Shown here: piece by piece, positions 598 to 5,292 of the stretch
Position numbering within the stretch: position 1 is the stretch's first letter
Layout of the letters: the number at the start of each line of letters is the position of its first letter
Virus record (IMG/VR): IMGVR_UViG_2529293249_000010
DNA length: 7,983 bases
Direction: 5' to 3' (one strand)
Source: a virus
Lineage: Duplodnaviria > Heunggongvirae > Uroviricota > Caudoviricetes
Program-made: the position numbers and the translations under genes
Notes under the pieces: generated by a model
What the model was told of the DNA's origin: nothing
What the model saw: only the letters and a program-made list of their open reading frames with translations
The model's database searches: none

Positions 598-798
598 CTT
601 AGGACTTCATCGGATGACTCTGGTAATCACCGATGGAGAATTTTGGTGGGCTGGCGGAGTTTGAATAAATATTATATTGCTTTGATTTTTAACGATTTTG
701 TTTAATTCAGTTTTTGTGCGTATACCTAATTGTATACCAATGGCTGTAAGTTAATGTGAAATTAAAGCGCATTTTTACTTGGATTGATGCTATATCGT

Positions 799-1160: not shown

Positions 1161-3494
1161 TCAGGTTGTCGCAGGGTCGTCACATTTTGGCAGCCAGTCG
1201 CCGTAGCTTTCCTCTTTCAGCGTCAGGTTGGTCTGTATCCCCTGTTTGGTATGGCGCTTCTCGTAATTCAGTCCGTATTCCTTCAGCATCACCGGCAGCC
1301 CCAACCCGAACATTTTCAGACTGAGTACATTCCGGTAGCCGTTTGCCTCCATGTAGGCCAGATAGGCGTGATAGAGGTATTTACGGTAATTACGCGGGAT
1401 GATACTGGCGTTCCCCATATACATGCCGCTGGTCTGCGGCAGGGTTTCCAGATAGCCGATAAAATCAAACGTCGGGTCGGCATCCCGTTTGATGTTCAGC
1501 GCCTCGTCTGAGTTCTGCTGGGACTGAAGCAGTGACCGGGCGAGCATCGGGTCGCTGAATTTCTGCATCAGGTGACGCACGATGACCGCCAGCTCGCGGG
1601 TGATTTTGTCCTTAAGCTGCGGGTCGCGCTCCTGCGGGGCTATCTGTTCCGGGAAGTGAATAATCACCCGCCGGCGTGACACGCCGCCGCTGCGGTCGGT
1701 GAAGCGCATCGGGTTATTGTTCACGGCCAGAATTACCGCCGGGATATGCGTGGAGTATGCATCCCGGTATTTCGGGTCAACGGACACCGCATCGCCGCCG
1801 GTGATGGCCTTGAGTCCGGCACCGTCGCCGCTCCATTTTTCCTGGTCCGGCAGGCGTATCAGTGAGAAGCCAGTTAACGCGGCACGTTCACGCGGGGATT
1901 CCAGCGTCTCAATGGTGGCCGACGTGGCGTTATCCTCCCCGGCCAGCAGGGTGGCTATTTCGGCCATGATACTTTTGCCGCTGCCGCCGGGACCGGTCAC
2001 CTCCAGAAAGAGCTGCCAGTCGTAGCGGTTTGCCAGCACCATAAACAGTGCGGCCAGAATTACGTCGCGTTTTTCCGCACGACCACCGGCAGCACGGTCA
2101 AGCCAGCGCCAGAACGCGGGGGCGTGGGTTTCCAGCGTTTCCCCTTCCACCGGCGGGGTGAAATCCACATCGCACAGGGTACGCATCCAGTGTGACGGAC
2201 TGTGCGGGTGGAACGTGCCGTTCTGCGTGTCGAGCACGCCGTTACGAAAGCCAATCAGGCGGCGGGAGGGGGCTTCCTGCTGCGGAATAATCAGCTTCAG
2301 GGTGTCCACCACGGAGGCCACCTTCCCGGAGGAGAACGGCGCACGCAGACGCTGAAACAGCCCGGCCACATCCCGGGCAAAGTCCTGTGGCGGCAGCACC
2401 TTCCAGACACCATTTTCATAGCGGGACAGAAGCTGGCCGTTGGCATCGACCGCGAGCGCCTCGCCGTAATGCTCATAGATACGCATGGCCTTTTCGCTGG
2501 TACTCATGGCGGAAAACTCTGCTTCGCTCATGGTGTCGAACGGGCTTTCAGCCGGTGGCCGGATGGCATCATAAATGGCCTTACGGGTGGCCTCCCCGCC
2601 GTACTGCGTGAAGGCATCATTCCAGTCACCGAAGACCGGCGGCAGGGCAACAACACCTTCACACGCATCTGCGGCTGCGGCGGCTTTTTTCTGGCCGTCA
2701 CCGCTGAGGTCACGGTCTGCGGCAAGGACAATCTGACAGGCCGGATGCTTCTGCCGGGCAAGGCTGGCCAGAGAAAGGAGGTTCACGGAAGAAAGCGCCA
2801 CCATCACCGTTTCACCGGTCAGGTGATGTACGGTAAGTGCGGTCGCGTATCCCTCCGCTATCCACAGACGTTTTCCGGCCTGATTCTGTCCTTCAAGGGT
2901 GTGACAGGTGCCCCTGACCTGTCCGCCTTTCAGGGTGCGCTTACGGCCGTCAGCACTGATTAACTGAAGGTTAACCAGTTCGCCGCTGTCGTCATACAGT
3001 GGCACCACAAGGTCACCGGCACGCCAGCTCACGCCACCGGCTCTGTGTGTGCCGGTCAGCATCCGGCATTCCCGGCCGGGAAAGCCCTTGCGGGTCAGGT
3101 AGGCGTTACCGGTTCCGGGACGGGTTTTTGCCATCAGGGTTTGTGCCAGTGCGGCGGCGTTCTTCCGGGCAGCGTCTGTTTCAGCACCGGCGGCGGCCGT
3201 CACTGCCGGGTCAGCCGGGGGCAGGCTGCCGGTCACGGCAGCCACCTTTGCGGCCGCGTCGGACGGAGAGACACCAAACACCTTTTCAACCAGTTTCAGG
3301 CCGTCACCGGCACCACACTGATTGCAGTACCAGGTGCCGCGCCCCTCCCTGTCATCAAAACGGAAGCGGTCACTCCCGCCACAGACCGGACAGGGCTGAT
3401 GACGGTTTTTCAGCACCTGAATCCCCAGCGCCGGGAGAATACGCGGCCAGTGGCCGAGCGCATGGCTGACGGTGGCGGTTACGTTCATTTTCAT
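1161..3494 (-). CDS. alpha: Alpha: bifunctional DNA primase / helicase with C-terminal origin-binding domain (777 aa)
   Basis: 777-aa ORF, ATG at 3494 with GAAGGAG Shine-Dalgarno 8 nt upstream. N-terminal zinc ribbon CPVCGG...YCNQCG (residues 35-60); primase EGYATA motif (residues 214-219, nt 2838-2855); Walker A GPGGSGKS (nt 1971-1994). The iterons it should bind are present at crr and ori. Confidence 0.95.
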   Translation of the reverse strand: MKMNVTATVSHALGHWPRILPALGIQVLKNRHQPCPVCGGSDRFRFDDREGRGTWYCNQCGAGDGLKLVEKVFGVSPSDAAAKVAAVTGSLPPADPAVTAAAGAETDAARKNAAALAQTLMAKTRPGTGNAYLTRKGFPGRECRMLTGTHRAGGVSWRAGDLVVPLYDDSGELVNLQLISADGRKRTLKGGQVRGTCHTLEGQNQAGKRLWIAEGYATALTVHHLTGETVMVALSSVNLLSLASLARQKHPACQIVLAADRDLSGDGQKKAAAAADACEGVVALPPVFGDWNDAFTQYGGEATRKAIYDAIRPPAESPFDTMSEAEFSAMSTSEKAMRIYEHYGEALAVDANGQLLSRYENGVWKVLPPQDFARDVAGLFQRLRAPFSSGKVASVVDTLKLIIPQQEAPSRRLIGFRNGVLDTQNGTFHPHSPSHWMRTLCDVDFTPPVEGETLETHAPAFWRWLDRAAGGRAEKRDVILAALFMVLANRYDWQLFLEVTGPGGSGKSIMAEIATLLAGEDNATSATIETLESPRERAALTGFSLIRLPDQEKWSGDGAGLKAITGGDAVSVDPKYRDAYSTHIPAVILAVNNNPMRFTDRSGGVSRRRVIIHFPEQIAPQERDPQLKDKITRELAVIVRHLMQKFSDPMLARSLLQSQQNSDEALNIKRDADPTFDFIGYLETLPQTSGMYMGNASIIPRNYRKYLYHAYLAYMEANGYRNVLSLKMFGLGLPVMLKEYGLNYEKRHTKQGIQTNLTLKEESYGDWLPKCDDPATT

Positions 3495-3508: not shown

Positions 3509-3829
3509 TCAGTGCAGTACCGGCGCTTTTATGTGACGGGCACAGAGTTCATCCATCACAACCAGCCCGAGAAAGGACAGCGACGGCGCGGCCTTCAGGG
3601 GGCCGGATTCCATTAAATCTTCCAGCAGGGCACAGGCTATCTGACGCCCTTTTTCCTCACCGTGCTGGCGCAGATAAAAGCCTTCCAGCTCAGCGGCGAT
3701 GGCCGCCTCCAGTGATTCAAGGGTGAGATGCGGGTAGCGGTGCTGACGTTCGCACACGGTCAGCCAGGCACAGGCGACAGCGCGACGGTAAAGGGCTGCG
3801 CGTAAGACGGGCGGTAAGGGGGTTTTCAT
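3509..3829 (-). CDS. 106-aa conserved hypothetical protein of the left operon (position and length of P4 orf106); function unknown
   Basis: ATG at 3829 with GGAGG Shine-Dalgarno 7 nt upstream; TGA stop at 3511-3509 sits inside the alpha ribosome-binding site, 14 nt before the alpha ATG. No motif I can recognise. Confidence 0.75.
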
Positions 3830-3896
3830 TTGCTTTCCTCCCTGTGACAGATGACTGCATTCCGTGCCGGTTGCATTAACTGATAAGGCATATCTG

Positions 3897-3936
3897 CGTC
3901 TCCTGAAGACGTGCGTATCCCTGCGCGAATACGCAC
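3897..3936. other. Two adjacent hairpins in the 135-bp orf151-orf106 spacer (possible attenuator, processing site or antisense terminator)
   Basis: CGTCT (3897-3901) / AGACG (3907-3911) with a 5-nt loop; GTGCGTAT (3911-3918) / ATACGCAC (3929-3936) with a 10-nt loop. On the plus strand the second stem is followed by ATTTAATTTTT (3937-3947). This is the only sizeable non-coding gap in the otherwise coupled left operon. Confidence 0.4.
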
Positions 3937-3964
3937 ATTTAATTTTTCGGGTGTCGTTTTTTAA

Positions 3965-4420
3965 TTACAGATAATTGCGGTAACTGTTATCCGGGGTGAT
4001 TTCCGGGTCAGGCTCCGTGCGGGGAATTTCCCGCCATTCCCGCGCCACCGGTGCCGCCCGGCTGACCGGAACAGGGTCCTGCGGGTAAATATCCAGATAT
4101 TTCTCCCGCCATTTCTGTAATTCCGGGTCTCCGGCCATTTCTTTCAGTACCGCATGCCGGTTTACGGGGCTGCGTTTGAACAGGTCAGGACGGTCACAGG
4201 TAAATTCCCGCAGAAAACGCCCCAGCGGGATGTCTGTGGTGCGCCCGTCGGCGAGGATACGCACAAGGATACTGAATTTACGGCGGTACGGGTTCCAGAC
4301 AATTTCCGGGCAGCGGTACGGCATTTCCCACGGAATACCGTCTTCCAGAATGCCGACCACGGCCACATCGGGAAAACCGGCAGAACGGTAAATCTCACCG
4401 GGCTGGGGAAAATCAAACAT
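3965..4420 (-). CDS. 151-aa conserved hypothetical protein of the left operon (position and length of P4 orf151); function unknown
   Basis: ATG at 4420-4418; the upstream eps stop TGA (4415-4413) lies 2 nt inside this gene (ATGTTTGA), suggesting translational coupling. TAA stop at 3967-3965. Confidence 0.82.
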   Translation of the reverse strand: MFDFPQPGEIYRSAGFPDVAVVGILEDGIPWEMPYRCPEIVWNPYRRKFSILVRILADGRTTDIPLGRFLREFTCDRPDLFKRSPVNRHAVLKEMAGDPELQKWREKYLDIYPQDPVPVSRAAPVAREWREIPRTEPDPEITPDNSYRNYL

Positions 4421-4890: not shown

Positions 4891-5292
4891 AAGGCAACCT
4901 CCGATAACAGCGTAAATGACGCTATCGCCGGAGTTTCCACGCTCGATGGCGATAGCCCAGACGGGGGTGGAAATACCGGCGTTATCGGAAACCGGCCAGC
5001 CCGGAGGCTGCCCCGCCTGAGCTACCATTGACTCTGCGGTATAATGAGCGGACGCGGGCAGAATGCACGGAGTGCCATTTGCTCGACTGACCACACACCA
5101 CACCATAATCTGGCGCTCTGTGGCGTTGATTGCGACACAAAAAAAGACGCATGGCGCGTCATATGTCGCCGATAACATACTCGGGTTTCCACGCCCGGCT
5201 GCCGATTTTGCGGCAGCGGAAAAACTATATCCGCAAATGCCGGAAAAAGGCAAGCCAGAAAAAGGAAGTTTTTGCAGAACAGGCATCATCAT
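4693..5292 (-). CDS. eta: Eta (about 197-199 aa), long ORF beginning upstream of PLE and ending as kil; translated from PLL transcripts
   Basis: Same frame as kil, open back to ATGATGATG (5292-5284), giving 199/198/197 aa. The vis stop TGA (5291-5289) is embedded in the triple ATG. The frame continues upstream to an ATG at 5337 (214 aa) that lies inside vis. It runs through the whole immunity leader, so it can only be translated from PLL read-through RNA. Confidence 0.55.
4899..4945 (-). promoter_or_regulatory. seqC: target of CI RNA in the left-operon leader, abutting the kil ribosome-binding site
   Basis: The transcript-strand sequence carries GCGUGGAAAC...GUUAUCGG, as does seqA; both blocks are complementary to the seqB region (4966-4988). 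Position is immediately 5' of the kil Shine-Dalgarno. Confidence 0.5.
4950..5020 (-). ncRNA. cI: CI immunity RNA (seqB region); boundaries approximate
   Basis: The plus strand at 4966-4988 reads GTGGAAATACCGGCGTTATCGG, so the minus-strand transcript carries CCGAUAAC...UUUCCAC, complementary to the GUGGAAAC and GUUAUCGG blocks of seqA and seqC. The region is GC-rich with several internal inverted repeats (for example CCGG...CCGG). Exact processed ends cannot be read from sequence. Confidence 0.5.
5165..5204 (-). promoter_or_regulatory. seqA: CI RNA target at about +13 to +52 of the PLE transcript
   Basis: The transcript-strand sequence CGGCAGCCGGGCGUGGAAACCCGAGUAUGUUAUCGGCGAC shares the GUGGAAAC and GUUAUCGG blocks with seqC. 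Confidence 0.5.
5224..5253 (-). promoter_or_regulatory. PLE, sigma70-type promoter of the left operon / immunity transcript
   Basis: On the minus strand TTGCCT (5253-5248) - 18-bp spacer - TATAGT (5229-5224); predicted start near 5217, just upstream of seqA and about 35 bp downstream of the vis stop. Confidence 0.5.

Follow-up and report, generated by a model that had tools for sequence, protein, structure and literature searches.

P4 is the model phage satellite, and the expression of its alpha and cnr genes decides between plasmid, lytic and lysogenic development. The DNA analysed here, a stretch of 7,983 nucleotides to which we refer as the window, is a P4-type satellite whose left operon is close-packed at the eps-orf151 and orf106-alpha junctions; between orf151 and orf106 lies a spacer of 135 bp that carries inverted repeats. 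What does this gap contain, on which strand do its inverted repeats form a structure, and what might that structure do for the genes on either side?

The left operon around the 135-bp spacer

Between positions 3400 and 4500, the window is 98.7% identical to phage P4 (X51522/NC_001609) and carries the same annotated genes in the same order; P4 positions are converted to window positions by subtracting 3475. The genes follow one another on one strand in the order of a P4-like left operon: CI RNA, kil, eps, orf151, cnr and alpha. The eps frame in the list of open reading frames starts at 4413 on the minus strand and overlaps orf151 (3965-4420, minus strand; phrog_10748) by 8 nt. Upstream of the spacer lies orf151, for which no Pfam family was found, and downstream lies orf106 (3509-3829, minus strand; DUF5375, PF17345), which is cnr, the copy-number gene of P4; alpha (1161-3494, minus strand, from the same list) is reached 14 nt further on. 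A published account of the P4-like gene order mentions cnr at the position of orf106 (PMC8628076). The close-packed junctions, and the size and position of the gap between orf151 and orf106 (3830-3964), are as the original prediction had described them.

Two bases of the spacer, 3837 and 3952, are not those of the P4 reference, and both of its hairpins are identical to those of P4. Its cnr-proximal end contains a Shine-Dalgarno sequence for cnr, read from the sequence as GGGAGG (3837-3842, minus strand) and placed 7 nt before the cnr ATG (3829-3827); the corresponding bases of the P4 reference are GGGAGA. With Rfam models, 4945-5032 matched the CI/C4 immunity RNA and 5140-5230 its targets, and there was no match within 3830-3964, even at E ≤ 1. 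The spacer was also considered as a further target of the CI antisense RNA and was rejected as such, the interaction energies of the segments covering it being weaker than the operon-wide average.

Several observations concern other parts of the window and its close copies. Codons 2-4 of cnr (ATGAAAACCCCC, 3818-3826, minus strand) contain an A/C homopolymer boundary that moves between copies while the length stays constant, in the versions AAAACCCCC, AAACCCCCC, AACCCCCCC and CCCCCCCCC, so that MKTP becomes MKPP, MNPP or MPPP; this variation could be a true polymorphism or an assembly error. Contigs with full (100%) identity to the P4-type cnr region (L004-L007) occur in metagenome-assembled genomes named Dysgonomonas, Clostridiales, Ferruginibacter and 'bacterium', and these are probably E. 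coli DNA that was binned wrongly. At 565-601, near attP, lies the strongest local hairpin in the window, on both strands (−24 kcal/mol); with an A-run and a T-run on its flanks it looks like a bidirectional terminator, and it overlaps a partial and far sub-threshold Rfam match to IsrM at 565-621.

A stem-loop at the 3′ end of orf151

Two perfect, adjacent hairpins had been predicted in the spacer, at 3897-3911 and 3911-3936, and both are present. On the plus strand, the larger of them reads GTGCGTAT-N10-ATACGCAC (3911-3936), a perfect 8-bp stem around a 10-nt centre, and is directly followed by ATTTAATTTTT (3937-3947). In the sense RNA, the same repeat is lengthened by U·G wobbles and A-U pairs to a 12-bp stem with a 6-nt loop, AUGUGCGUAUUC-GCGCAG-GGAUACGCACGU (3909-3938, minus strand), of which 10 core pairs lie at 3911-3936. 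This stem-loop was retained in a 271-nt sense context, in the minimum-energy fold as well as in the centroid fold. The 34-nt sense window that contains it folds at −17.5 kcal/mol, compared with a mean of −6.0 kcal/mol (s.d. 3.8) for windows along the entire strand, and it ranks within approximately the seven best local hairpins of the minus strand. For the spacer as a whole, the folding z-score was −1.9 in the sense orientation and −0.66 on the plus strand. RNAalifold, applied to the relatives described below, independently gave the same helix. The dyad itself is already known, since it was annotated in 1984 and is listed in GenBank X02534 as an 'imp. region of dyad symmetry' equivalent to window ∼3906-3940. 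The large hairpin is separated from the orf151 stop codon by a 26-nt A-rich linker (sense UUAAAAAACGACACCCGAAAAAUUAA; 3939-3964, minus strand) that differs among relatives in both sequence and length, the distance from the stop to the hairpin core being 22-28 nt in relatives and 43 nt in one of them, L261.

The conservation of the hairpin was assessed in relatives comprising 80 cnr loci from species-representative genomes together with orf151 loci that metagenomes, viral contigs and contig look-ups supplied, the orf151 homologues being 44-100% identical at the amino acid level. Scans of metagenomes and viral contigs with an ORF151 alignment returned mostly near-identical E. coli copies, which were used for population statistics and not for covariation; the diverse orf151 loci were obtained by scanning viral sequences with single proteins and by looking up contigs. 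The motif of the large hairpin was found at the 3′ end of orf151 in 194 of the 196 loci bearing this gene and in none of 71 related loci without it, and it accompanies orf151 down to 44% amino acid identity. Across 19 representative loci (ORF151 44-100% identical), most columns of the hairpin were identical in ∼90% or more of the loci, compared with identity scores of 0.77/0.78/0.66 for the neighbouring codon positions of orf151. Within the P4-type population, only one segregating site was found in the 30 nt of the hairpin (0.033 per nt), and this is a G-C to G·U change. Polymorphism in the hairpin is thus ∼5-fold lower than in its flanks, where orf151, the linker (0.154 segregating sites per nt), cnr and the apparent gene relic described below have 0.15-0.20 segregating sites per nt.

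Compensatory substitutions, which the original prediction had named as the evidence to look for in both stems, are weakly represented in the large one: one double change does occur, and the covariation score is not significantly above that of shuffled alignments. Across variants, 93.8% of the cells of the large hairpin are paired. The lone double change, from U-A to C-G, is found in L261, and six further pairs vary on one side only, with a standard pair kept in all but one cell. The covariation score was 0.166 compared with 0.157 in shuffles, and 36 of 500 shuffles reached the observed score, a lack of significance that arises because the sequence hardly varies. The main signal of selection is therefore the strong conservation of the sequence itself, which is also what a protein-binding site would produce. 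In a clade from Hafnia, Buttiauxella and Cedecea (L056, L257, L258 and L269), the stem has 2-3 uncompensated mismatches and a different fold is predicted. We conclude that the spacer contains a genuine intercistronic hairpin on the sense mRNA and that selection has maintained it.

An insertion sequence has entered the hairpin in some STEC genomes. The element is ISCro1, of the IS66 family (tnpA, tnpB and transposase); in L084 (NZ_CP027352.1) it lies at the equivalent of window ∼3931, where it splits orf151 from cnr-alpha, and the same is seen in hits H41 and H42. The hairpin was also considered as a junction between recombination modules. This idea was rejected, the E. coli breaks at 3931 being the ISCro1 insertion and those at 3816 a deletion.

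The ribosome binding site and an apparent gene relic

The smaller hairpin (3897-3911) reads CGTCT-CCTGA-AGACG, a perfect 5-bp stem that has base 3911 in common with the large hairpin, and on the minus strand it contains the Shine-Dalgarno sequence CAGGAG (3905-3900) of the next cistron. The original prediction regarded it as a structural element in its own right, and the comparison with relatives speaks against this: over 23 distinct variants, only 72% of its cells are paired, its score lies below that of shuffles, and no double changes occur. Its 3′ arm (CAGGAGAC) is nearly invariant across the 23 variants, and its 5′ arm takes several forms (GUCUU, GUCCU, GUGCU, ACCUG, AUAUU or ACCCU) for which the 3′ arm does not compensate. 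The bases of CAGGAG are invariant or nearly so, and the 5 nt between the large stem and the Shine-Dalgarno sequence vary freely in sequence. Their number does not: in 22 of 23 distinct variants the ribosome binding site begins exactly 5 nt after the large stem, whereas the stop-to-hairpin and Shine-Dalgarno-to-ATG distances both vary. We conclude that the small hairpin is a P4-specific coincidence of a ribosome binding site with a few complementary bases.

Which cistron does this ribosome binding site serve? A 21-codon open reading frame (3826-3891, minus strand) begins with an ATG 8 nt after AGGAG and ends with a TGA that overlaps the cnr start codon (ATGA). Judged by its sequence and surroundings, it appears to be the in-frame relic of an ∼86-aa phrog_10110 gene that is sited between orf151 and cnr in relatives. 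The frame shares with the phrog_10110 genes its site, its position after the orf151 hairpin and a ribosome binding site, its stop codon overlapping the cnr ATG, and a similar run of the first 11 codons. Over the 30 ungapped positions of codons 2-11, 15-18 match the starts of orf151-type phrog_10110 genes, compared with 7.7±2.0 in the null (p∼1e-4); further 3′, similarity to phrog_10110 members is confounded by the cnr Shine-Dalgarno sequence. A search with nhmmer, using a phrog_10110 DNA profile made mostly from elements without orf151, gave no match in the relic, which counts against this origin; the relic is too short for such a search, and elements of that kind dominated the profile. Neither Pfam nor NCBIfam has a family for the phrog_10110 gene. 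In contrast to the full genes of relatives, the P4 type has only 21 codons and no visible constraint on the peptide. The length of the frame is unchanged in 154 P4-type copies and its ATG is kept in 153 of them, and the peptide looks unconstrained because the substitutions among these copies are mostly nonsynonymous.

Three layouts of the region can be distinguished. In the first, found in most cnr loci, there is no orf151 and no spacer, and a ∼75-aa gene, itself coupled to the gene preceding it, overlaps cnr by ATGA. In the second, that of the orf151 loci, the orf151 stop is followed by the A-rich linker of 22-28 nt, the large hairpin, 5 nt, CAGGAG, another 6-9 nt, and the ATG of an 85-86-aa gene that again has the ATGA overlap with cnr; L049, L047, L270 and others carry such a full phrog_10110 gene between orf151 and cnr. 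The third layout is derived: the P4 type retains 21 codons and L242 retains 23, and in L058, L256, L264, L266 and L261 cnr starts directly after the ribosome binding site. The 23 codons of L242 (IMGVR_UViG_3300029940_000001) form an independent in-frame phrog_10110 stump, MPYKQNNDAINHNNPCSLTGEVNI*, with an ATGA overlap onto cnr. In both L058 and L256, cnr is fused straight to the first ∼3 codons of the phrog_10110 gene. A 75-aa protein of unknown function that 61% of P4-like elements encode between eps and alpha, and that is absent from P4, has been described (Moura de Sousa & Rocha 2021, PMC8628076), so that the gene missing from P4 was already noted in 2021.

P4 and L242 have each lost part of the gene independently, and both losses are in frame. 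This would be suggestive of selection for coupling, but the coincidence is weak evidence because its chance probability is ∼1/9 and any frame that remains open in that phase ends at the ATGA. The original prediction saw the spacer as simply interrupting a translationally coupled operon. This description fails, in that a ribosome binding site and a 21-codon frame with an ATGA overlap onto cnr are present within the spacer. The P4 gap can be read instead as an orf151-linked RNA hairpin, a ribosome binding site and a 21-codon stump, a composite that we did not find stated in the literature searched.

Candidate roles of the large hairpin

A PLE-like promoter is predicted on the minus strand at window 5253-5224 (TTGCCT, 18 nt, TATAGT), its −10 element ending at 5224 and the predicted start of transcription lying at ∼5217. 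An RNA from this start to the foot of the large hairpin at 3909 would be ∼1.31 kb long, and one extending to t-alpha (1144-1127 plus its U-run) would be ∼4.1 kb. Deho et al. reportedly described PLE RNAs of 1.3 kb and 4.1 kb in 1988, sizes that the two predicted RNAs match. A full-text literature search for transcripts of the region, whose scope excluded the classic P4 transcription papers, returned nothing relevant.

Two canonical terminators lie on the same transcript. One is a hairpin with U7 at 5160-5146 (minus strand), between the PLE-like promoter and the CI RNA, presumably the t1 of the P4 literature; the other is t-alpha at 1144-1127 (minus strand), with U8. The large hairpin resembles both in its G+C-containing stem-loop, and at 12 bp and −17.5 kcal/mol its stem is as stable and G+C-rich as a sense intrinsic terminator calls for. 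It differs from them in what follows. Behind the two terminators are 7-8 U; behind the hairpin the sense RNA continues with GUCUUCAGG, which has no U-tract, and in relatives with GUCCUC, GUGCUC, ACCUGC, AUAUUC or ACCCUC. Because a U-tract is lacking, the tail varies and t1 and t-alpha carry 7-8 U, efficient intrinsic termination in the sense direction is unlikely, and the large hairpin is therefore at best a leaky terminator.

The absence of a U-tract, taken together with a ∼1.31-kb geometry that matches the 1.3-kb RNA, favours a function at the 3′ end of an upstream message. We propose, with middling confidence, that the stem-loop sets the 3′ end of the kil-eps-orf151 message or protects it. 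As an intercistronic 3′-end and stability element in the sense mRNA, it would block 3′-5′ exonucleases after termination or processing further downstream, or it might act as a leaky, non-canonical terminator. A stable promoter-proximal message (leader, kil, eps and orf151) would then accumulate apart from the full-length message that extends to cnr and alpha, and expression of the replication genes would fall relative to that of the genes upstream. Ribosomes on read-through transcripts could still reach cnr by way of the relic frame and of the ribosome binding site that cnr itself possesses.

Such an element would have known counterparts. The REP hairpins at malE-malF and the hairpins of the puf operon are likewise stable sense stem-loops between cistrons without a U-tract, and the large hairpin, as with intercistronic stabilisers, sits where a shorter promoter-proximal RNA would end and is conserved with its upstream gene. 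It can also be likened to the hairpin-defined 3′ ends that are trimmed by exonuclease after Rho-dependent termination. In contrast to REP-type elements, its sequence is unique and not repeated. It differs from both the REP and the puf hairpins in that its stem and loop are conserved across genera and its distance to the ribosome binding site is fixed at 5 nt.

This fixed spacing would suit a translational role no less than a role at a 3′ end. The hairpin might be an operator for an RNA-binding protein, a structural insulator or a standby site upstream of the first cistron of the replication module, a possibility that we consider real but minor. In the same tentative way, it might set initiation on the phrog_10110 gene, its relic or cnr, and reach cnr through coupling. 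The invariance of the stem-to-CAGGAG spacing, when the other distances vary, argues for such a role, as do a loop, GC(G/A)CAG, and most stem bases that are conserved beyond what pairing needs, and a 5′ arm that keeps its sequence even where, in one clade, the 3′ arm is no longer complementary to it. The MS2/R17 coat-protein hairpin offers a parallel, being also short, conserved in loop and stem, and adjacent to a ribosome binding site. However, operators of the MS2/R17 type differ from the P4 hairpin, which contains neither a Shine-Dalgarno sequence nor a start codon and has no known binding protein. Both the Shine-Dalgarno sequence and the AUG lie outside it, no candidate binding protein was identified, the cnr gene of P4 has a strong Shine-Dalgarno sequence of its own, and the same picture would be expected from any generic stabilising hairpin passed on with few indels.

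A third possibility, which we regard as doubtful, is that an RNase E-type enzyme cleaves in the AU-rich linker and that the stem-loop, then at the 5′ end of the distal cnr-alpha RNA, protects it from 5′-end-dependent decay. Stabilisers at the 5′ end next to a ribosome binding site are known, for example in the ompA 5′ UTR, and the large hairpin likewise adjoins the ribosome binding site of the distal message. Most lineages have an A/U-rich, single-stranded tract (AAAAAUUAAAU) immediately 5′ to the stable stem, although the sequence of the linker is not conserved. Cleavage in the linker is compatible with the 3′-end function proposed above, since either of the two fragments could be protected by this hairpin.

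More speculatively, and with a correspondingly low probability, orf151 and the hairpin might form a regulatory cassette acting in cis and in trans, in which ORF151 would act on the RNA or on paused RNA polymerase and thereby tune read-through or translation into cnr and alpha. The basis for this suggestion is the strict co-occurrence of the hairpin with orf151, its conservation at the level of sequence, and its fixed distance to the ribosome binding site. The N-terminal ∼55 residues of ORF151 are modelled, with low confidence, as a Tudor/SH3-like barrel. This predicted barrel is similar to the domains with which CarD, UvrD/PcrA and Mfd interact with RNA polymerase, and it has a weak likeness to the ribosomal protein eL21.

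The readings above place the structure in the sense mRNA. In the original prediction, the plus-strand hairpin (3911-3936) with ATTTAATTTTT behind it was taken for an intrinsic terminator of antisense transcription, for which we now see very little chance. A perfect 8-bp, G+C-containing stem with a T-rich tract (AUUUAAUUUUU) behind it does have the appearance of a terminator, and most lineages have the matching A-rich tract in the sense orientation. However, this stem of 8 bp has a 10-nt loop, and in nearly all variants it is weaker than its sense counterpart, with fold energies of −16 to −20 kcal/mol for the sense strand compared with −10 to −17 kcal/mol for the antisense strand. The share of cells in which the core pairs form is 96.5% in the sense orientation and 85.2% in the antisense orientation, and by variant the sense strand pairs better in 22 of 23 and equally well in the remaining one. 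The natural substitutions point in the same direction. The two apical pairs always oppose a pyrimidine to G (UC, CU or UU against GG), two C-to-U changes in L264 give wobbles on the sense RNA only, and a basal G-C has turned to G·U in L133 and L056; on the plus strand, each of these becomes an A·C mismatch. Moreover, a search of both strands between 3400 and 4500 gave no promoter-like site, and on the plus strand there is no gene upstream of the hairpin, the only frames there being antisense to alpha and cnr. The T-rich tract is not a feature of all lineages, being poor in L261 as well as in the Hafnia/Buttiauxella clade. A consensus terminator scan of the spacer called nothing on either strand, with a loop limit of 8 that the 10-nt loop of the plus-strand hairpin exceeds and with no T-run on the sense strand. 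Because the pairing, the wobbles, the promoter scan and the tail all point to the sense mRNA, it is there that the structure acts, if it acts at all, and an antisense terminator is unlikely. We did not find this strand assignment stated in the literature searched.

That a dimeric DNA-binding protein uses GTGCGTAT-N10-ATACGCAC as an operator is hardly credible: both half-sites are strongly conserved and the 8-mer GTGCGTAT occurs 4 times in the window compared with 0.13 expected, but conservation across the 10-bp centre is asymmetric, the substitutions seen keep the wobble pairing of the RNA and not the symmetry of the half-sites, the extra copy within orf151 is not conserved in relatives, and there is no promoter nearby to regulate. 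The copies of the 8-mer are the two hairpin arms, one at 4257-4264 (minus strand) and one at 716-723 (plus strand), the last lying between attP and crr beside a GTATACC direct repeat. The copy in orf151 (sense GUGCGUAUCC) is perfectly complementary to the 3′ arm of the hairpin. Long-range pairing between the two was considered and rejected, that copy not being conserved in relatives.

The preferred reading thus remains that of a sense stem-loop at the 3′ end of the kil-eps-orf151 message. The alternative that the original prediction offered for the sense transcript, namely processing, attenuation or uncoupling between orf151 and orf106/alpha, fits both the conservation of the hairpin and its preference for the sense strand. 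The element in the spacer is an ordinary feature of an operon and does not reveal a new kind of mechanism. What the comparison provides is an evolutionary explanation of the 135-bp gap, as a conserved hairpin belonging to the orf151 cassette followed by what appears to be the stump of a gene still present in 61% of P4-like elements. The hairpin may bear on how the promoter-proximal part and the replication part of the left operon come to be expressed at different levels.
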